A DNA stretch of 64,000 bases from an uncultured Lentisphaerota bacterium. GTDB taxonomy: Bacteria; Verrucomicrobiota; Kiritimatiellia; CAIQIC01. Below the pieces are notes generated by a model. That model was not told the DNA's origin and ran no database searches. It worked only from the letters and a program-made list of their open reading frames with translations. How positions within the stretch are numbered: the first letter of the stretch is position 1; every line of letters begins with the position of its first letter. A program made the position numbers and the translations under genes. Location of the stretch: assembly GCA_903912445.1 (NCBI GenBank), contig CAIWHP010000110.1, forward strand, positions 15,612 to 79,611, in the 5' to 3' direction. Below are positions 27,182 to 35,454 of the stretch, in pieces.

Positions 27182-27481
27182 AGTCAGAGAGCAGAGGTCA
27201 GTAGTCAGCGGTCAGAGGTCAGCCGGCGGAAGAACTCCGCAGCCTCGAACAAACACGCACCTGTTGGAATGTTTCCGCCCCACGGACGCGCGCGCTGCCC
27301 AGAAAAGGATTCGCGTGCCTGGCGGCCTTTGCGCAAACTTTCTCCGCCGCCTGCGCAGGCTCAATGGCCCGCATGGACTTCATGGACAGCCGGTCCGTCC
27401 AGCTTATCCATTTTGTCCCTCTGCCTGCTGGCCTTGCTCAACCCGCTGCTGAGGTCACTACGCGGCTTCGCTGTTCCGTTG

Positions 27482-27561
27482 TTCCAAACCCTTGGAAAAA
27501 ACGAGCTTTCCTTTTCCAAGGTCTGGAAAAGAGGTCAGCTTGGTTTGGCGGCGGCGAAGCC
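27482..27561. repeat. Left copy of an ~80-bp direct repeat (palindrome pair plus orphan copy of the channel-gene 3' end)
   Basis: Aligns with 30847-30925 at about 70 of 79 positions by manual alignment. Ends with gtcagcttggtttggcggcggcgaagcc, which reads GFAAAKPS* on the minus strand. Confidence 0.75.
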
Positions 27562-27585
27562 CTCGGCATCGTCGGCGCCGCGCAG

Positions 27586-27876
27586 GTGAGCCCCGATCTG
27601 AGCGCCATCCAGCCGCAGTTCGATGTCTCGGTGAGCGGCACCCAGGTGAACGTTAACTGGGGCTGGCAGGGCCAGGGCCAGTTCCTCGACATGTGCGAGC
27701 TGCAAGTGGACCGCGGCCAGGGCTTCGTCCTGCTCGCCTTCGACACCACGCCCGGCTACAACGACACCACGCCCTTCCCCACCGCGCCCGCCAAGTGGAC
27801 CTACCGCGCCATCTTCCACGTCGGCGACGGCCGCGTCGGCCAGTGGAGCAACCCCGTCAGCGTCATGGTGGGTTGA
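27586..27876 (+). CDS. Small FN3/Ig-like hypothetical protein (start uncertain)
   Basis: High-GC ORF ending ...KWTYRAIFHVGDGRVGQWSNPVSVMVG. A GTG at 27586 is the first plausible start after the repeat; the ATG at 27364 would read through the repeat. Confidence 0.35.
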   Translation: MSPDLSAIQPQFDVSVSGTQVNVNWGWQGQGQFLDMCELQVDRGQGFVLLAFDTTPGYNDTTPFPTAPAKWTYRAIFHVGDGRVGQWSNPVSVMVG

Positions 27877-27895
27877 GAAGATAGGCCGTGCAATG

Positions 27896-27927
27896 CTGCG
27901 CCGCATAGTGTGTACTATGCGGCGCAG
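27896..27927 (+). terminator. Perfect 14-bp stem / 4-nt loop hairpin at the GC-content break
   Basis: ctgcgccgcatagt-gtgt-actatgcggcgcag. No U-tract follows, so terminator function is uncertain. Confidence 0.35.
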
Positions 27928-27967
27928 TAACTAAAGGATGTCGCTTAACAATAAAAGGGAACACGCA

Positions 27968-28414
27968 ATGCCAAAAACCGTAATTTTCGTCGGATCATCA
28001 CAAGAAGCGAAAACTCAGACGAAGGCTCTGACCACCGCACTGACTTCACCAACAATAGAATTCCTCCCTTGGTGGGAATGCTTTACGGCGGGACATCTTC
28101 TGCTTGATGACCTAGAGGCGGTAAGAACGAAGGCAACAGCAGCAATGTTCATTCTCACGCCTGATATCCCCGCGACCATGCGAGGGGTTTCCGTGGCACT
28201 ACCGAATCAAAACGTATTGTTTGAGGTTGGTTATTTTTTCAATGCGTTTGATCGAGCGCGAATTGCACTCGTTAAATATGGTGCGACAACAATTCCAAAA
28301 GATCTCGATGGATACACTCACATAAAAGGCAGCGATTATTTCAAACCGAGAGTTTCGACGGTAGTGGGAAAAAAGACGCGAGAAGCGTTCGACAAATGGA
28401 TTGTAAGTCTATAA
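27968..28414 (+). CDS. Stand-alone TIR-like nucleotide-binding domain protein (Cap12 / Pycsar-effector TIR-like type)
   Basis: KTVIFVGSSQEA...AAMFILTPDIPA...LPNQNVLFEVGYFFNAFDRARIALVKYG..IPKDLDGYTHI matches the remembered consensus (VFIVHG..., LLTPDD..., RQNVIFELGYFIG.LGR.RV..L, IPSD..G). The ATG at 27968 has AAGGGA 8 nt upstream; an alternative ATG lies at 27938. Low-GC codon usage. Confidence 0.6.
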   Translation: MPKTVIFVGSSQEAKTQTKALTTALTSPTIEFLPWWECFTAGHLLLDDLEAVRTKATAAMFILTPDIPATMRGVSVALPNQNVLFEVGYFFNAFDRARIALVKYGATTIPKDLDGYTHIKGSDYFKPRVSTVVGKKTREAFDKWIVSL

Positions 28415-28516
28415 CGAATCGACTGGCGCAATGGCCCGACCATGCATCAAGCTGGCGGGCCATTTTTCTGCAATCAGATCTTCGAACTGGCGGAACCATG
28501 CGGCAGGTTTGCAAGG

Positions 28517-29215
28517 TCACTTCTTTTTATAATCAGCAACAATGCCCAATTCCTGGACACGTTGAGAAGCGAGCAGTTCGAGGCGGCGCGCCTGTGTGAG
28601 CAAGGTGCGTCGTAGGCCGCGCGAAACATGCCGTTCACTTATCACTCGTGCAAGGCTGGCAATAGTTGTCGCGCGTCGCGCAAGGCGTACATCGGGATGT
28701 TTGCGCTGGTGGTAAATGGCCTTTGGAATAATGTTTTGTTTATAAGACTGTGGCAGCTGAATTTCACTTTTCGGCAACATTTCTTTCTCGTTTAGCACCG
28801 CGCCCAACGTCGACTCCCTTAGGACCTTCTGAAAAGCTGTGTATTCTGCACTGTCCAACACTGCTTTCTTTTCGCTCTTGCCCAGCCCACGGACGAGCTC
28901 ATCAAGGGGCCAAACCTCGATGAATGCTACCTCAAACGGATCAAGGACGTTCATAGCCACGGCATCGGTGCGCTGATTTGTCAGATGACGGCTAATCCGC
29001 CCACTTAATTTTTCCTTTGTTTGCCCAACATAGATGGGCTCGCCATCGTAGTCATAGAAAGCGTACACGCCATGCTGGTAACTTCCGATGCGGTTGCCCA
29101 GCGCGTCCTTAGTTGAAAAAAACTTTCGTATCTCGCCACGGATTGCTGCGATATCTTCCGGTAACCCCACGACTTTAGATTGCGCGAACAGTTCTTTTTT
29201 CTTCGGTGTCGTCAT
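28517..29215 (-). CDS. GIY-YIG family nuclease, putative type II restriction endonuclease (Eco29kI-like class)
   Basis: GVYAFYDYDGEPIYVGQT...GRISRHL...FIEVW (GIY-YIG core with Arg and Glu). Its start lies 41 nt inside the 3' end of the methyltransferase gene. Low GC. Confidence 0.7.
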   Translation of the reverse strand: MTTPKKKELFAQSKVVGLPEDIAAIRGEIRKFFSTKDALGNRIGSYQHGVYAFYDYDGEPIYVGQTKEKLSGRISRHLTNQRTDAVAMNVLDPFEVAFIEVWPLDELVRGLGKSEKKAVLDSAEYTAFQKVLRESTLGAVLNEKEMLPKSEIQLPQSYKQNIIPKAIYHQRKHPDVRLARRATTIASLARVISERHVSRGLRRTLLTQARRLELLASQRVQELGIVADYKKK

Positions 29216-30329
29216 TCGTGTATAGCTCCTTCCAAACTGGGGTCAGATAATTTTCCGCAATCCAGCGTATTACAGGAACGCAGACCGCATCTCCAAAACC
29301 AAACAGAGCCTGGTTGATCGGGACAGTGATGCGAAAATCATCGGCACCCATCAGTCTCGCACACTCCCGGGGAGTGAGAAGCCGTACTGCATAGCGGCCT
29401 TTTCCGGCCGCAAAAAGTATCTGCCGCCCGCTCCCGCCACGTGGTGTTCGCAGACATCCGGCAATGCCATCGGTCCTTAACTCTGCCATGGAGCGAGAAT
29501 ATCGAACCCGGCGAAATACTGTGCCATATGTAATTTTTTTCCCGGAAATCATTTTGTCTGCGATTTTGCGGTGGCGCTCGCTCATTTGATTTAAAAGATA
29601 CTCTGCGCGCTCTTTGCTCCACCAAAACTCTGAACTCGAAGGAAGATCTTCGAGAATGCTACGCAGGTTAATATCTTTCTTCGCAATGCCCGGCAAATTG
29701 CGAATGGACCAGCGAATAAAGGGGTTTGAGAAAATAAAATCAGCTAGCGCAGGCGGGCGACACTGGCTCCCATAAAATGCTGAAGTTTCGCCGATTTTAT
29801 TGGCCTCAGTCTTTTCCTGTTTTCCAATCAGAAAGAGACGCTGCCGACTCTGCGGCACAAACAGACCGGCATTAATAATGAAGGCATCCACCGCGTATCC
29901 AAGATCATTAAGAGCCAAACACGCATCCCGGAAGTCTTGGCCCCCATGAGAGCTCAAAAAGCCTGTAACATTTTCGAGCATGATGAGAGGCGGTTTCTTT
30001 GACCGCATTGACTTCATCGCCTTGATAAAACCCCAAAACGCACCAGAATTTTCGCCCACAAGTCCGCGCCGAGCACCAGCAAGTGATAGGTCATTGCAGG
30101 GAAACGATGCGGTCGCGAGAGCAACAGTTGGAATATCGCTAGATGTGAGCGCGTGTACGTCGCCCAAATGAAAATGAGCAGATTCGGAGCCGAAGTGCCC
30201 TTCGTACATCTTCATTTTCGACTCTTCGATGTCATTCGCCCAGACAACATTCCATCCGGCTTGCTCCAATCCCATTCGCATTAGGCCGATGCCTGCGAAA
30301 AACTCAGCCACTGTTCGCTCATTATTCAT
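29175..30329 (-). CDS. dcm: DNA (cytosine-5)-methyltransferase
   Basis: Motif I EFFAGIGL, motif IV SFPCNDLSLAG, motif VI ENV, motif VIII QSRQRLFLIG, LTPRECARLMG, motif X GDAVCVPV. Confidence 0.95.
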   Translation of the reverse strand: MNNERTVAEFFAGIGLMRMGLEQAGWNVVWANDIEESKMKMYEGHFGSESAHFHLGDVHALTSSDIPTVALATASFPCNDLSLAGARRGLVGENSGAFWGFIKAMKSMRSKKPPLIMLENVTGFLSSHGGQDFRDACLALNDLGYAVDAFIINAGLFVPQSRQRLFLIGKQEKTEANKIGETSAFYGSQCRPPALADFIFSNPFIRWSIRNLPGIAKKDINLRSILEDLPSSSEFWWSKERAEYLLNQMSERHRKIADKMISGKKITYGTVFRRVRYSRSMAELRTDGIAGCLRTPRGGSGRQILFAAGKGRYAVRLLTPRECARLMGADDFRITVPINQALFGFGDAVCVPVIRWIAENYLTPVWKELYTNDDTEEKRTVRAI

Positions 30330-30729
30330 GACTTTTCAGCGCTTTCTCAATGCGAGCAACCATCGAATTTTTGCGAACCGCATCTTCCCAAATCCTGATG
30401 ACATTCCAACCCTTTTCTCTAAGCATGCGTGAGACCAATTTGTCCCGAGCCACATTACGCGCGATCTTTCGCACCCAATAACGGCGGTTGGTGTGTGGCA
30501 TGCGACACTTTCGCGGATGGCCATGCCAGAAGATGCCATCGACAAAAATGGCCAGCCGTGCGGCAGGAAAAACGAAATCTGGTTTCCCGAAGAGCGGGTA
30601 GTTTCTGCGCCAGCCTGTCAGCCTTCTTTCACGGAAGACCCGCATCAGCCGCTGCTCCGTCGAGGCGTTTCCTTGCGATTTGATCCGCGCCATGATCCTC
30701 GACCGCTCTTTTGGGCTGCAAGTGTCCAT
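30322..30729 (-). CDS. vsr: Very short patch repair (T:G mismatch) endonuclease
   Basis: RSRIMARIKSQGNASTEQRL...GWRRNYPLFGKPDFVFPAARLAIFVDGIFWHGHP. 8-nt overlap with dcm. Confidence 0.9.
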   Translation of the reverse strand: MDTCSPKERSRIMARIKSQGNASTEQRLMRVFRERRLTGWRRNYPLFGKPDFVFPAARLAIFVDGIFWHGHPRKCRMPHTNRRYWVRKIARNVARDKLVSRMLREKGWNVIRIWEDAVRKNSMVARIEKALKSHE

Positions 30730-30846
30730 GAGGATATTTTAAGTCTTTTGGACCTTTTGACCAGCGGGGAAGCAGTGTCTCCTGCTTCATTCTTCACGAC
30801 AAGAATTGCAAGGAAAGGCTCACCGTGTGCTGTCGCCCGCGTGGAT

Positions 30847-30925
30847 TTCCAAGCCCTGGAAAAAACGGCCTTTTCTTTTCCAAGGTCTGGAAAACCCGTC
30901 AGCTTGATTTGGCGGCGGCGAAGCC
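30847..30925. repeat. Right copy of the ~80-bp direct repeat (overlaps the true 3' end of the channel gene)
   Basis: See 27482-27561. Contains GFAAAKSS* and the stop of the gene 30899..32494. Confidence 0.75.
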
Positions 30926-32494
30926 GAGGAGGCGCTTGAAGCGCTGGAGCAGGGTGTCGTGCTTGAGGGCGTTGGCCGAGGCGCCGTTCATGGCCTTGAG
31001 GCGGTCGTAGTTCTGCGCGTTCTGGGCGGCGCGGTCGGCGACGAGGCAGGCGAGCTTCTCCGGGATCTCCGGGCGCAGGCCGAGCAGGCGGGTGAAGGCT
31101 TCCGGCGAGATCTCCAGCAGTTCGGCCTCTTCCGGCACGGTCAGCGTCGCGGCGCGCGGCAGGCCGGTGACGAGGCTCAGCTCGCCGCAGAGCGCGCCGG
31201 TGGGCAGGTCGAACTCGGTCGGCGGCGTCGCGTCCTGGAACTCCACGCGTCCGTGGAGGCGGCCGCGGACGATCACGTAGCAGCTTTCGCCGGCGTCGCC
31301 CTGCCGGAAGACCGTTTCGCCGGCGGTGTAGCGGACGAAGCGCAGCAGGGGCGCGAGCTGCGTCAGGTCGCCCTCGGCCAGCAGCGGCTGGCCGGCGGCA
31401 TCCACAAACAGGTGGGCGACGAACGTGCTGCGCTGCAGTTCGCGGACGCGGCGCGCGGCTTCCGCGGGCGGCGTGGGCTGATGCTGCTGCCCGTTGACGA
31501 CGTGCATGAAATCGCACAGCAGCTTGTCGCTCATCGGGAACGGGATCTCGATGCCGTGGCGCTTGAACTGGTACCAGATGTGGCGGTTGACCTCGCCGCT
31601 GATGGGCGCACGGTTCTGATAGGCGTCGACCCAGATGCGCAGCTCATAGCCGATGCCGAAATCCTTGTAGGCGCACGGGAAGGCCCTGGGCGGAGGGTCG
31701 CGCAGGACGGCCGGCACGGCGGACGCCGCCGCGAGCAGGGCGGCGCTGACGTCGGCGGGCGCGGAGTCATAGCTGGCGTCCACAAAGAGCGAGTGGCGGC
31801 GGACGCTGTCCGGCCAGCTCATGTTGTGGATCGCGGCGGCGGCGATCATGCTGTTGGGCACGATGAGCGTGTGGCCGGCGGTGCTGCGCAGGTGCGTCTC
31901 GCGCCAGTTGGTCTGGAGGATCTCGCCCTCGGCTTCGCCCAGGCTGATCCATTCGCCGGGCCGCAGCGAGCGAGTGATGTGGATGGACATGCCGGCGAGC
32001 AGGTTGCCGAGCACGCCCTGCAGCGCGAAGCCGATGATCGCGGTGACCAGCGCGGTCGAGGTGAGCAACGGGGAGATGTTCACGCCCAAGTAGCGCAGGA
32101 CAACGAGCACGGCGGCGCCGAGCAGCAGGCCGCGGACGAGGTTGCGCAGCAGGCCCGGCAGCGGGAACGCGCGGCCGCGCAGCCGGAAGATCGCCGCGAG
32201 CAGCCCCTCGCAGAACGCGAGCACGGTGACGACCGCCCAGACGGCGAGCCAGATCTTGAGCAGCTGGTCGTTGCCGAGCGCGGAGAGCTGCGGGAGCTTG
32301 TCGGCGATCAAGCGGAGCACGCCGGCGAGCGCGAGCACGACCAGCGGCGTGGCCAGCGGCTCGAGCAGCGCGCCCAGCGGCGAGGCCATTTTCGCCGCGC
32401 GGCGGCGCAGGGGCAGGCCGACGAGCCAGCCGACGACGAGGAGGCCGGCGAGCGCGCCGATCTCGATGATGTGTTCGGTGATGCCCTTATCCAT
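30899..32494 (-). CDS. MscS-family mechanosensitive channel fused to a cyclic-nucleotide-binding domain
   Basis: TM helices, then the MscS beta domain (GNLLAGMSIHITRSLRPGEWISLG...GEILQTNWRETHLRS...LIVPNS). C-terminal cNMP-binding domain (GETVFRQGDAGESCYVIVRGRL...GELSLVTGLPRAATLTV). Internal ATG at 32494 (MDKGITEHIIEIG). Confidence 0.85.
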   Translation of the reverse strand: MDKGITEHIIEIGALAGLLVVGWLVGLPLRRRAAKMASPLGALLEPLATPLVVLALAGVLRLIADKLPQLSALGNDQLLKIWLAVWAVVTVLAFCEGLLAAIFRLRGRAFPLPGLLRNLVRGLLLGAAVLVVLRYLGVNISPLLTSTALVTAIIGFALQGVLGNLLAGMSIHITRSLRPGEWISLGEAEGEILQTNWRETHLRSTAGHTLIVPNSMIAAAAIHNMSWPDSVRRHSLFVDASYDSAPADVSAALLAAASAVPAVLRDPPPRAFPCAYKDFGIGYELRIWVDAYQNRAPISGEVNRHIWYQFKRHGIEIPFPMSDKLLCDFMHVVNGQQHQPTPPAEAARRVRELQRSTFVAHLFVDAAGQPLLAEGDLTQLAPLLRFVRYTAGETVFRQGDAGESCYVIVRGRLHGRVEFQDATPPTEFDLPTGALCGELSLVTGLPRAATLTVPEEAELLEISPEAFTRLLGLRPEIPEKLACLVADRAAQNAQNYDRLKAMNGASANALKHDTLLQRFKRLLGFAAAKSS

Positions 32495-33335
32495 TGAGTG
32501 TGACCTCCATGCCTGCCTGCGCCAGCGCCGCCCCGGACCACAGCCGCCGCGCGGCCCGCGCCACCTCGTCGAGCTGCGCATCGGGGCTCTGCGGCGCGTG
32601 GTGGGTGACCAGCAGCTCGCGCACGCCGGCCTGTTGCGCCACCTCGACATCGTCTTCCCACGCCGAGTGGCCCCAGCCTTTGAACTTGGCAATATTCGCG
32701 CGGCAAAACTGGCCATCCATTACGAGCAACTGTGCGGGCCGCGGCTGCGAGCAAAGCGCAAGGAAGTCGCGCTTCTCGGCCTCGGTGGAGCCGCGCCACT
32801 CCAGGTCCGTCGCGAAGACCACCGCCGCGCCGGTCGCCGGCTCGTCCACGCGATAGGCGTGGCAGCCTTCCGGGTGCTGCACCGCGCACCAGCGGATTTC
32901 CAGACCGTGGTGGCGGCGCACGGCGCCGGCGGCCGCGGGCAGCGTGGTGAGCTTCAGCCGCGCATGCAACTGGTCGAGCTGGATGGGCCAGAACGGCTTC
33001 GCGAGGATGCTACGCACGACCTCGCGCGGCTCGAAGGCCGCGCGGCGCGGCGCGGCGATCTCGACCGTCCAGGCTTTGTTGTAGAGCAAGGCAAACGACG
33101 GCAGGCCCATGATGTGGTCGAGGTGATAGTGCGTCATCAGGAGCAGCACCTCGGCCCCGGCCGCGCCCGCGGCCAGCCGCCCGCCGAGCGCGCGCAGGCC
33201 GGTGCCGGCATCGATGACGAGTTGCTCGCCGCCGCGGCCCTCGATCAGCACGGAAGTCGTCTCCCCGCCGTATTTCAGGAAGTCCGCCTGCGCGACCGGG
33301 CTCGTCCCGCGCACCCCGCCAAAGATGAATTTCAT
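32487..33335 (-). CDS. MBL-fold metallo-hydrolase (possible cyclic-nucleotide phosphodiesterase)
   Basis: LLLMTHYHLDHIMGL (HxHxDH). Overlaps the channel gene by 8 nt and lies 1 nt after the cyclase gene. Confidence 0.8.
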   Translation of the reverse strand: MKFIFGGVRGTSPVAQADFLKYGGETTSVLIEGRGGEQLVIDAGTGLRALGGRLAAGAAGAEVLLLMTHYHLDHIMGLPSFALLYNKAWTVEIAAPRRAAFEPREVVRSILAKPFWPIQLDQLHARLKLTTLPAAAGAVRRHHGLEIRWCAVQHPEGCHAYRVDEPATGAAVVFATDLEWRGSTEAEKRDFLALCSQPRPAQLLVMDGQFCRANIAKFKGWGHSAWEDDVEVAQQAGVRELLVTHHAPQSPDAQLDEVARAARRLWSGAALAQAGMEVTLNG

Positions 33336-33336
33336 C

Positions 33337-35454
33337 TCATTTCTCCGTCAAACTCCAAACGCCGTCCCAGGCGGCGGGCGGCGCGGCCTGCAACGCGCGG
33401 CACTGGGCGGCGTAGGCCCGGGAGGCCGGATCGTCCGGCAGCCGCTCGAACGCGGCCAGCGCCGCGGCGAAGTCGCCTGTGTAAAACTGCGCCAGCGCCT
33501 GCTCGAAGGCGGCGAAGTGCGCGGGGCGCGCCTCGCCGGCCAGACCGGCGAGCTCATAGACGCGCACCGGCGCCTTGCGCCCGACAACGCGCAGCCGGCC
33601 CAGCTCGCGGCCGATGAAGCTCCCGCCGCCCTGCTGCCAGGTGGTCTCGGAGACCATCAGGTAGGTGCCGAACGCCTTGTTCGCACCCTCGAGCCGCGAG
33701 GCGAGGTTCGCCGCGTCGCCGAGGATCGTGTAGTTGAAGCGCTCGCGCGAGCCCATGTTGCCGACGATGACCGCGCCGGTGTTGAGGCCGATGCGCGCCT
33801 TGACCACCGCGCCGGTGCGCTGCTCGAACTCCGGGCGCAGCTCCGCCAGCCGGCGCTGGCAGCGCAGCGCGGCGCGGCAGGCGCGCGCGGCGTGGTCGTC
33901 CTGCCCGAGCGGCGCATTCCAGAACGCGACGATCGCGTCGCCGATGTATTTGTCGAGGTAGCCGCCCTCCGCCTGGATGCACGCGCCCATCTCCGAGAGG
34001 TAGGCGTTGAGCAAGGCGGTCAGCGTCGGCGGATCGAGCCGCTCGGAGAAGCCGGAAAATTTCTCGATGTCGGAGAAGAAAATCGACAGTTCCCGCTTCT
34101 CGCCGCCGAGCTGGAGCTTGCCGGGGTCGGCGATGATCTGCTCGATGACCTCCGGGCCGAGGTAGTATTTGAACGCCGACTTGATGAACGCCTTCTGCCG
34201 GCCTTCCGTGGCGTAGTTGACGACGACCGCGCCGATGAGGGTCAGCGCCACGGCGACCACGCCCGGAGCGACCGGCCACCACCAGCCCGCCAGGTAGCCG
34301 GCGAACCCGAGCCCGATGGCGAGCGCGAGGAACACCACGAACCCCAGCACGGTCTGCCACGAGTTGCGGCTGAAACGCCCCGCGAAGCCGGCACCCAGCG
34401 CGAGCAGCAGGGTGGCGAGGACCGTGGCGACATCCGGCAATTCCCGCAGGAATGTCCGCGACAACAGGTTGTCGAGCGCCGTCGCGTGGACCAAGACGCC
34501 GGGATAGACCTTGCTCATGGGCGTCGGCCGCAGGTCGAGCAAGCCCGGCGCGCTGAAGCCGAAGAGGGCGTAGCAGTCCTTGAGCGCGGCCGGTTCGATG
34601 GTCGGTTTTTTGCCTTCGCGCAGCAACAACTCGGAACGGATGATCTCCCGGACGTTGAAGGTCTGATGCGTGCCCGGCGTGCCGACAAAGCGCAGGATGG
34701 CGCGGCCGCGCTTATCGATCGGGAAACGCTGACCGTCGATGGTCAGCCAGCCCGGCGCAAGGGCGAGCCGGGCCTGCGGTTGGCCGGCCAGATAGGCGGC
34801 CAGGCCGAGCGAGGGCACGACATGGCCCGCGAACTCGCGCACAAGTGTCGCATGCCGATAAACACCGTCGAAAGAGGGCACGCCGTTGACATCGGCCAGC
34901 AGGGTCGCGTTGGTGGCGACGGCGGCGATGGGAAAGCTGGCGCGCGGCGCGCTTTTCAAGGCCTTGGAAAAACGGAGGGCATCCTGGTCCACGGTTTGAA
35001 AAGCCGGCAGCTTGAGCGGTACGGCAGCAGGCCAGTTGGTATACTCACCCTGCTCCTCGCCAAGGAAGGCGGCGCCGACAAAGGGCGCGCCGCGCCGGAT
35101 GGCGTCGCCCAGCGCCTGGTCATCGTTCACGCCCCAGCCGCTCGGCTCCGTAAAGAGCACATCGAACGCGACCGCCTTCGCGCCGGCGCGCTTGCAGAAG
35201 TCGAGCACGACACCATACGCCTCGCGCGGCCAAGGCCAGGTCCAGCTGTTCTCGTTCTTGCCCCAGTCCAAGCTGGGTTGATCGAGCAGGATCACCTTGA
35301 TCTGCCCGGTGGCAGGCGAGGGTTTGGCGAGGGCTCGGACGCGTGCCAGCCAGGCGGAATTTTCCAGCCAGTGCAACTGGCCACCCAACGACAGCGCCAG
35401 CGCGACAAGCGCGCCGCCGAGGCCGAGCAACACAGCATGGAGGAGCTTTTTCAA
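33337..35454 (-). CDS. CHASE2-sensor class III adenylate/guanylate cyclase
   Basis: N-terminal signal/TM plus an extracytoplasmic CHASE2-like region and 3-4 TM helices. Cyclase core: LSIFFSDIEKFSGFSE...YLDKYIGDAIVAFWNAP...RIGLNTGAVIVGNMGS..RFNYTILGDAANLASRLEG. Confidence 0.9.
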   Translation of the reverse strand: MKKLLHAVLLGLGGALVALALSLGGQLHWLENSAWLARVRALAKPSPATGQIKVILLDQPSLDWGKNENSWTWPWPREAYGVVLDFCKRAGAKAVAFDVLFTEPSGWGVNDDQALGDAIRRGAPFVGAAFLGEEQGEYTNWPAAVPLKLPAFQTVDQDALRFSKALKSAPRASFPIAAVATNATLLADVNGVPSFDGVYRHATLVREFAGHVVPSLGLAAYLAGQPQARLALAPGWLTIDGQRFPIDKRGRAILRFVGTPGTHQTFNVREIIRSELLLREGKKPTIEPAALKDCYALFGFSAPGLLDLRPTPMSKVYPGVLVHATALDNLLSRTFLRELPDVATVLATLLLALGAGFAGRFSRNSWQTVLGFVVFLALAIGLGFAGYLAGWWWPVAPGVVAVALTLIGAVVVNYATEGRQKAFIKSAFKYYLGPEVIEQIIADPGKLQLGGEKRELSIFFSDIEKFSGFSERLDPPTLTALLNAYLSEMGACIQAEGGYLDKYIGDAIVAFWNAPLGQDDHAARACRAALRCQRRLAELRPEFEQRTGAVVKARIGLNTGAVIVGNMGSRERFNYTILGDAANLASRLEGANKAFGTYLMVSETTWQQGGGSFIGRELGRLRVVGRKAPVRVYELAGLAGEARPAHFAAFEQALAQFYTGDFAAALAAFERLPDDPASRAYAAQCRALQAAPPAAWDGVWSLTEK

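Follow-up and report, generated by a model that had tools for sequence, protein, structure and literature searches.

Can a bare TIR domain, encoded by a single gene and joined to no sensor, act as an immune effector by itself? The question is raised by a stand-alone TIR-domain gene (positions 27968-28414, plus strand, stop codon included; product of 148 amino acids) found in a 64,000-nucleotide stretch of DNA from an uncultured Lentisphaerota bacterium; this whole stretch is referred to below as the window. The initial annotation of the locus left two readings side by side: a minimal single-gene NADase or nucleotide-processing defence, and a functional pairing with the restriction-modification (R-M) genes that lie next to it. 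The pairing is not borne out by the homologs on either side, and the reading with the best support is a minimal NADase defence of one gene, for which we infer NADase activity, an oligomerisation trigger, a phage trigger and a defence phenotype. This explanation is built on a solitary protein of recognisable domain, fold and pocket, kept under purifying selection, of foreign origin in its present host and devoid of a conserved partner.

A protein made of one TIR domain

The gene is intact. Its open reading frame (ORF) extends over 158 amino acids (27938-28414, plus strand) and holds an internal ATG at 27968, which gives the 148-amino-acid form and is the likely start codon, since nearly all homologs are 148 amino acids long and begin with MPK, and since a Shine-Dalgarno-like motif, AAGGGA, is suitably spaced 7-12 nucleotides upstream of it; the ATG at 27938 abuts the purine run of that motif. 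The sole Pfam family in the product is PF10137 (CAP12-PCTIR_TIR), matched over profile positions 2-116 of 119 with an E-value of 1.4e-18 and 67.5 bits (cutoff 24.7), in agreement with the earlier description of a TIR-like fold standing alone and of Cap12/Pycsar type. All four sequence blocks quoted in that description are present, and PNQNVLFE is invariant across the family, whose members are labelled in databases as TIR-domain or predicted nucleotide-binding proteins.

Larger defence models are matched in their TIR portions only, as is the case for the PADLOC models of the TIR effector of CBASS (an anti-phage system that signals through cyclic oligonucleotides), of PycTIR and of PDC-S35, and the NCBIfam Cap12 equivalogs reached 29 and 20 bits where the cutoff is 450. 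The protein has no Pfam match to PF05014, the housekeeping family named as a check at the outset, at E <= 1; nor does it match PF08937 (ThsB) in Pfam, any ThsB model among its PADLOC matches, or the cNMP_binding domain of Pfam. Next to the gene there is no plausible small ORF that could serve as a partner, no Rfam family and no relevant tandem repeat, and the same is true of the convergent spacer of exactly 102 nucleotides (28415-28516) that separates it from the neighbouring GIY-YIG gene, at the distance and on the opposite strand originally noted.

Structural kinship and the NAD+ pocket

The AlphaFold2 model of the protein (predicted local distance difference test, pLDDT, 88; predicted template modelling score, pTM, 0.84) has as its top Foldseek match the TIR domain of SfSTING (PDB 7UN8; E 6.6e-07, template modelling score 0.74, root-mean-square deviation 2.5 A, 29% identity), followed by other TIR-STING structures and then by generic TIRs. 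The structures of DNPH1 (E 1.4e-2) and nucleoside deoxyribosyltransferase (E 1.9e-2) are far poorer matches. The possibility that a structure search would place the protein in a housekeeping family, considered in the initial annotation, therefore does not apply, and an enzyme of the nucleoside 2-deoxyribosyltransferase (NDT) or LOG type was rejected on Pfam and fold evidence. The family profile searched against the PDB leads to the same relatives, with Cap12 (7UN8) at 3e-16 and PycTIR (8JSJ) at 5e-5. In the model, strands 67-71 and 74-78 form a beta-hairpin (residues 67-78) between betaC and the catalytic helix, which corresponds to the CC-loop insertion typical of the Cap12/Pycsar TIR clade, where such a hairpin is a clade feature (PMC9402430; bioRxiv 10.64898/2026.04.30.722052).

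The NAD+ pocket of SfSTING has been described at the residue level: F6, W33, F37 and L47 provide the stacking for nicotinamide, the contacts to phosphate and ribose come from S10, R78 and N80, E84 is catalytic, and D110 is contributed by the dimer mate, completing the site only once TIR domains pack (PMC9402430). Eight of these nine pocket residues are conserved in the window protein, where F6/W33/F37/L47/S10/N80/E84/D110 become F7/W35/F39/L49/S11/N82/E86/D112, and the mapping of Glu86 onto E84 upholds the catalytic glutamate proposed for this protein. The mapped residues are invariant in the subfamily alignment, save F39 (F in 17 sequences, I in 2).

The ninth residue sets the subfamily apart. 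R78 of SfSTING is replaced by Asn (N80) within the motif PN[QL]N (residues 79-82, P79-N80-Q81-N82 here; window positions 28202-28213), which 24 of 25 subfamily representatives share, along with nearly all of the 127 homolog loci that were collected. It takes the place of the PRxN of sensor-fused Cap12/PycTIR proteins, and the sensor-fused Cap12-like relatives mostly keep PRxN, with its Arg, at the same site. Judging from the alignment, the loss of this phosphodiester-contacting Arg may indicate an altered handling of the substrate.

A family under selection and without a conserved partner

A profile search covering 1.8 billion representatives returned 26 clusters at E <= 1e-30, after which the scores fall into Cap12-like proteins of about 310 amino acids. 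Within the family, length is uniform at about 148 amino acids, and 30 residues are invariant. Reference genomes hold 35 loci, spread over Verrucomicrobiota, Gammaproteobacteria (many of them Steroidobacteraceae), Chloroflexota, Actinomycetota, Acidobacteriota, Planctomycetota and NC10, and metagenomes hold 80 further loci. The 127 homolog loci amount to 71 non-redundant groups, with 1.5 kb or more of sequence downstream of the gene in 45 of them. Where synonymous divergence (dS) is measurable among relatives, the ratio of nonsynonymous to synonymous substitution (dN/dS) is 0.11-0.15, which marks the gene as a functional unit under selection, as opposed to a remnant. The idea of a truncated Cap12 or PycTIR pseudogene was rejected on the same values (about 0.1-0.15) together with the uniform length and the 30 invariant residues.

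No partner recurs across the family. ORFs were called around 71 non-redundant members and the neighbours were clustered over 68 loci; the largest neighbour cluster is present at 11 of the 68, and the recurring clusters reflect synteny within Steroidobacteraceae or Chloroflexia. The longer relatives do not supply a fused partner either: all ten of those examined also match PF10137, no confident extra domain was found among the longer close relatives, and the remaining long forms are apparent over-called N-termini or unannotated tails. One protein (P0014, L003 4164-4943), 63% identical, is extended at its C-terminus by 110 amino acids in which a winged helix (HTH_IclR, 6e-4) is matched below threshold, and would be the sole possible natural fusion in the subfamily.

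Foreign origin at a variable site

The TIR-like gene was horizontally acquired in this genome. Its GC content at third codon positions (GC3) is 0.42, against about 0.8-0.9 in host genes, and the site that it occupies is empty in relatives. It forms part of a four-gene islet with a GC content of about 50%, compared with about 65% elsewhere, in which the genes have GC3 values of 0.42, 0.54, 0.50 and 0.60 (host genes, 0.75-0.92). The islet lies in a variable region (27183-30894, delimited by blastn, gene maps, GC and GC3) between a pseudouridine synthase gene on the left and, on the right, the gene of an MscS-type channel with a domain binding cyclic nucleoside monophosphates (cNMP), whose orthologs are 81-84% identical in metagenome-assembled genomes (MAGs) of Verrucomicrobia/Kiritimatiellaeota type.

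In one relative (L138), whose flanks are 83-85% identical, blastn aligns 254 nucleotides with an unrelated 71-amino-acid ORF in the place of 27183-30894. Gene order there is M48 peptidase, CHASE2 cyclase, metallo-beta-lactamase (MBL) fold protein, channel, small ORF, pseudouridine synthase and RlmD-type methyltransferase; the 71-amino-acid ORF lies 32 nucleotides past the channel gene, and the islet is absent. Since 27183-30894 replaces these 254 nucleotides, the site is a variable hotspot.

Searches of the islet proteins with Pfam, PADLOC and NCBIfam found no cyclase, STING, SAVED or ThsA. The initial statement that the island has no CD-NTase, pyrimidine cyclase, ThsA-like, STING or SAVED gene thus stands, with the caveat that a CHASE2/class III cyclase is encoded beyond the islet, at a distance of about 5 kb.

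A proposed self-contained single-gene defence

We propose that the TIR-like gene would by itself constitute an abortive-infection defence that is complete in one gene, or would encode at least a conditional toxin, a proposal that we consider evenly balanced. The protein would be held inactive as a monomer or dimer. Upon infection, a phage component or the rising concentration of the protein itself would drive TIR-TIR packing; in the packed state, the active site around Glu86 in one subunit would be completed by Asp112 of the next, and the assembly would hydrolyse NAD+, bringing the growth of the infected cell to a stop. Precedents exist within the clade, as Cap12 and Pycsar TIRs become NADases upon oligomerisation (PMC9402430). 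The genomic record fits such a role at about a quarter of the loci, where the gene is clearly lower in GC than its flanks and frequently has genes of defence or of mobile elements around it.

Several observations weigh against this proposal. The biochemical and phage precedents come from TIRs other than the 148-amino-acid subfamily, and the change of R78 to Asn may mean that NAD+ is not the substrate, or not the sole one. In this clade, a TIR that has no sensor can be toxic constitutively, as Dictyostelium TirC shows, yet many copies of the present gene are stably inherited, and these stable chromosomal copies fit a non-immune role as well as a tightly restrained defence. A strong match to a defence model lies within 2-3 genes at about one fifth to one quarter of the independent loci, a raw fraction that carries no background rate. 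A scan for sigma-70 promoters detected none. The phage collection and IMG/VR yielded no family members, and plasmids gave one weak match (29% identity); carriage by phages or plasmids was rejected on these counts.

If active, the family would be close to the smallest conceivable Cap12-type immune module and a bacterial counterpart of the sensor-less amoeba TirC, and it would show how a TIR NADase can be controlled without the ligand-binding sensor otherwise needed for polymerisation. For annotation, the PN[QL]N motif offers a simple marker of the sensor-less subfamily, and the adjacency to R-M genes in the window is to be read as coincidental.

Alternative functions of the protein

The main rival, unlikely in our judgement, is a housekeeping or regulatory enzyme that processes nucleotides or NAD, for example an N-glycosidase with a substrate other than NAD+, the window copy having merely been transferred. 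The strongest case for it is made by Steroidobacteraceae (L016, L022, L024, L026, L028-L040, L043) and Chloroflexia (L020, L023, L037), where the gene is syntenic, has the GC content of the host and sits among housekeeping genes, including those for a nucleoside:H+ symporter, an F420/NADP oxidoreductase, a methyltransferase, and GFA and DUF218 proteins. At several Steroidobacteraceae loci, the TIR-like gene is divergent from the symporter gene (PF03825). These copies hint at a stable and possibly non-immune role, and many neighbours in the pooled scans are housekeeping genes too. The symporter adjacency is nevertheless limited to one bacterial family and may be inherited synteny, whereas over the family at large the gene is patchy across phyla and clearly foreign in GC at about a quarter of the loci.

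The protein itself also points both ways. The Asn at the phosphate-binding position is subfamily-wide, and the TIR fold is common to nucleoside deoxyribosyltransferase and DNPH1, as the weak Foldseek matches show; against this, these enzymes score about 1e-2 where the SfSTING TIR scores 6.6e-07, PF05014 is not matched, and the trans-acting Asp is kept together with the whole nicotinamide-stacking set, as in immune NADases. Finally, the gene recurs beside bona fide defence systems, with strong neighbour matches at various loci to PDC-S31, PDC-S39, PDC-S45, RT-SLATT, NsnA and Type IIG or Type I R-M, and, at one locus (L015), with an HNH-headed protein of 2,110 amino acids.

Quite unlikely, we consider, are two variants that would grant the subfamily a more particular identity. 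The PN[QL]N proteins might form a distinct class of TIR enzymes which, through loss of the Arg that contacts the phosphate in Cap12/PycTIR, would have a substrate other than NAD+ or a different product, and that combine trigger sensing and auto-inhibition in one TIR domain; or the gene might be a portable suicide add-on that backs up neighbouring defences, R-M in the window and Type I R-M, CBASS or others elsewhere. The CBASS case is found in one lineage only, at two identical loci (L072/L074), where a CD-NTase gene and an overlapping gene for a two-transmembrane (2TM) effector lie 90 nucleotides downstream of a TIR-only homolog of 49% identity, on the same strand (L072 4151-6125). The three genes form a low-GC islet (GC3 0.54/0.70/0.55 against 0.90 in host genes), and the CBASS is a complete Type I system with its own 2TM effector, so that the TIR-only gene could be part of an operon with it or a mere neighbour. 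This CD-NTase was recognised from concatenated neighbour sequences, after single PDB searches of candidate neighbours had not located it.

Improbable as well is a role in the service of a mobile carrier and not of the host, be it as a toxin for addiction or exclusion or as a means of counter-defence. Close homologs do occur in conjugative or integrative settings: one (L010) neighbours a DolB-like ATPase, the coupling protein TrwB, ArdC and AbiEi, another (L003) has a remnant of insertion sequence IS91 nearby, and a further group (L005 27-2804; L006, L008, L009, L053, L056 and the P0005 contig) has a 754-amino-acid N6/N4 methylase encoded 67 nucleotides downstream. The pairs of this last group, whose methylase is large and of orphan type, lie on low-GC Bacteroidota-like contigs with two upstream contexts, either RadC plus a 79-amino-acid ORF or an IS200-type transposase (L005-L009, P0005). 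The window copy, for its part, sits in an integration hotspot. However, no antitoxin-like partner, RNA or repeat is conserved, the phage and IMG/VR collections, and essentially the plasmids, are without the family, and many copies are chromosomal and vertically inherited. The context does not discriminate, since defence genes commonly ride on mobile elements. Moreover, we know of no TIR-domain anti-defence protein, which also counts against this alternative.

Very unlikely, in turn, is a Thoeris-like function, in which the TIR would produce a second messenger from NAD, to be read by an effector whose gene lies elsewhere. ThsB proteins that are TIR-only or nearly so do produce signals, and one homolog (P0012 contig) adjoins a TPR-S and ThsB-TIR pair. 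Nonetheless, the protein belongs to PF10137 and not to the PF08937 of ThsB, the PF10137 TIRs characterised to date are NAD+-depleting effectors, no effector of ThsA, SLOG or Macro type is conserved near any locus, and signalling TIR systems have adjacent effectors (bioRxiv 10.64898/2025.12.03.692087).

Alternative partners in the window

A minimal single-gene defence would need no neighbour, and the genes around it in the window were examined as candidate partners. Three lie on the minus strand within the islet. The nearest (28517-29215) encodes a GIY-YIG nuclease (PF01541, 31.5 bits), a putative Type II restriction endonuclease for which no PADLOC restriction-enzyme model and no PDB sequence was matched. 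Its gene overlaps by 41 nucleotides that of a C5-cytosine DNA methyltransferase of Dcm type, the M subunit (29175-30329; PF00145, 3.5e-50; TIGR00675; PADLOC MTase_II, 3.3e-119), which is accompanied by a Vsr very-short-patch repair endonuclease (30322-30729; PF03852; TIGR00632, 102.9 bits with a cutoff of 97.85). The GIY-YIG family is widespread and unusually well conserved: it has more than 7,000 homologs, many at about 80% identity, in Nitrospirae, Kiritimatiellaeota, Sumerlaeota, Elusimicrobia and other groups.

The initial annotation suggested that the TIR-like protein may act as an abortive back-up when restriction fails, and recommended that the co-occurrence of homologs be checked; a related idea is regulation of the protein by Vsr-Dcm-GIY-YIG. 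Adjacency at 102 nucleotides inside one small low-GC islet speaks for such a pairing, as does the recurrence of R-M neighbours elsewhere: besides the 754-amino-acid methylase and the Type IIG and Type I matches, a Type I HsdR of 1,141 amino acids (PADLOC 7e-151) is encoded 75 nucleotides upstream of a TIR-only homolog, in the same orientation, in a MAG of Microbacteriaceae (L014/L073; L014 6504-10447).

The co-occurrence itself turned out to be nil in both directions. None of the 127 TIR-family loci (71 non-redundant groups, of which 45 reach 1.5 kb or more downstream) has a homolog of the GIY-YIG, Dcm or Vsr proteins of the window, and in four independent contexts of the GIY-YIG gene, each with Dcm and with or without Vsr, the TIR-like gene is missing every time. 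In addition, the two units are convergent and therefore not co-transcribed, and they differ in GC3 (0.42 against 0.50-0.60 in the R-M genes). The neighbouring systems change by lineage (R-M of Types I and II, CBASS and others), and a TIR-like gene beside R-M genes of differing types is what the clustering of defence islands predicts; the recurrent restriction or modification neighbours thus favour a defence role in general and not a specific coupling. Since the pairing is seen in the window only, the Vsr-Dcm-GIY-YIG genes are best read as an independent and self-sufficient Type II R-M system that shares an integration hotspot with the TIR-like gene, and we hold a functional partnership to be highly improbable.

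To the right of the islet, three minus-strand genes give the window the look of a Pycsar system in pieces. They encode the MscS-type channel with its cNMP-binding domain (30899-32716; the true start probably gives about 531 amino acids), an MBL-fold protein (32487-33335) and a 705-amino-acid protein with CHASE2 and class III nucleotide cyclase domains (33337-35454). The cyclase matches PADLOC PycC at 8.6e-32, and the channel and the TIR-like protein match complementary parts of the same PycTIR and TIR-effector models, the cNMP-binding domain of the former covering positions 31-146 and the latter positions 150-274. This cluster (30899-35454) is, however, native, having a GC3 of 0.88-0.92 and being found at 81-86% identity in three or more related genomes from which both the TIR-like gene and the islet are missing. 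No CD-NTase was matched by PADLOC among the 46 window proteins.

That the cyclase product activates the TIR-like protein in trans, with the channel supplying the cNMP-binding domain, has a negligible probability and was rejected, despite the three genes lying within 7.5 kb: the PycC match spans the generic catalytic domain only, the R-M module lies in between, and the resemblance is coincidental because the cluster is native and conserved without the TIR-like gene, none of the 127 homolog loci has a class III cyclase or a cNMP-binding domain within 10 kb, and no domain for ligand binding is present in the TIR-like protein. The partial PycC and PycTIR matches of native CHASE2/class III cyclases and of cNMP-gated MscS channels carry, then, a risk of false-positive Pycsar calls when a TIR gene is nearby.

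Repeats and other features of the insertion site

The variable region is bordered or crossed by several repeats. An 80-nucleotide direct repeat has its left copy at 27482-27561 and its right copy, 86% identical, at 30846-30925, at the right edge of the region (both on the plus strand). Both copies hold the partly palindromic motif TTTTCCAAGGyyTGGAAAA, which is matched 13 times in the window against 0.02 expected, with sites at 2685, 11493, 11525, 19208, 22626, 27512, 30845, 30876, 34953, 38716, 42020 and 42052. The copies were considered as attachment (att) sites, and this was rejected in view of the 13 occurrences of the core element, which is genome-wide; the dispersed repeat may be an element resembling repetitive extragenic palindromes (REP-like) or a substrate for recombination.

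A hairpin with a perfect 16-bp stem and a 4-nucleotide loop (27894-27929, plus strand) is formed by an inverted repeat between the stop codon of the upstream ORF (27876) and the start of the TIR-like gene. It has no second copy in the window, is placed exactly at the boundary from high to low GC, and folds as RNA with -41.5 kcal/mol for the surrounding 106 nucleotides (z -4.8), with no U-tract. The hairpin was absent from all 138 fetched loci, and its travelling along with the TIR-like gene was rejected, as it is found at this locus only. It probably terminates transcription of the upstream ORF or serves as an operator, and could be an insertion scar.

Two further features were noted upstream of the islet. 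A short tandem repeat (27182-27222), which may be described as 5.7 units of GTCAGAG or as two units of 21 nucleotides, starts at the synteny break (27183). An ORF of host GC (27364-27876, plus strand), of 170 or 96 amino acids according to differing gene calls, overlaps the dispersed repeat with its 5' part; it has no Pfam match and is not homologous to the 71-amino-acid ORF of the relative.

Comparison with known systems

The closest known protein, in both sequence and structure, is the Cap12 TIR of SfSTING (7UN8). The two share the same fold, including the CC-loop beta-hairpin, and the catalytic Glu, the nicotinamide-stacking residues, the Ser, the Asn and the trans-acting Asp are all kept in the window protein. 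Unlike Cap12, the window protein has no STING or SAVED sensor and its chain stops past the helix behind the TIR core, its gene has no adjacent CD-NTase, its NCBIfam Cap12 score of 29 is far from the cutoff, and the phosphate-contacting R78 is Asn across the 148-amino-acid subfamily. PycTIR (8JSJ) belongs to the same Pfam family, and positions 150-259 of the 288 in its PADLOC model are matched at 4e-12; the N-terminal cNMP-binding domain and the adjacent PycC of that system are both missing here. The distance to the ThsB of Thoeris is greater, as there is neither a PF08937 match nor a conserved ThsA-like effector in the neighbourhood.

Two other comparisons are looser. The C-terminal part of the models for PDC-S35, a single-gene candidate of PADLOC for which our literature search found no publication, matches the TIR region (best 1.3e-09), but the match is partial, these models having 231-278 positions with an N-terminal region that the window protein lacks. 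NDT and DNPH1 (PF05014) share a distant Rossmann-like fold with a comparably placed catalytic Glu, but no Pfam match, and a structural match much poorer than that to immune TIRs.

A eukaryotic relative shows what a sensor-less member of the clade can do. TirC from Dictyostelium, a TIR-only protein of the PF10137 clade, oligomerises spontaneously into large complexes, has potent NADase activity and poisons bacteria as well as yeast (bioRxiv 10.64898/2026.04.30.722052). Like the window protein, it has no sensor domain and keeps the catalytic Glu, and it forms NAD+-hydrolysing filaments on its own; unlike it, TirC carries a restraining N-terminal membrane helix, which is missing from the 148-amino-acid bacterial family.

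The nearest precedents for a defence of this kind are TIR-V and TIR-VI, along with TIR-IX, validated in E. coli as single-protein, TIR-only anti-phage systems, in which portal or tail-fibre proteins are the triggers, the TIR catalytic residue is required and infected cells die faster (PMC11350192). These systems, which come from E. coli, are likened to the present gene by architecture and proposed logic only: one gene, a sole TIR domain and no required partner. A systematic survey of TIR proteins also recognised stand-alone TIRs and set them aside as likely NAD+ depleters (bioRxiv 10.64898/2025.12.03.692087). The initial remark that no such architecture could be named as described is, for the single-gene reading, superseded by these two reports, and neither single-gene TIR-only defences nor sensor-less TIRs of the Cap12/Pycsar clade are new. 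What is new is the delineation of the 148-amino-acid PN[QL]N subfamily, the evidence against its pairing with R-M, and its split between mobile defence islets and stable chromosomal copies.

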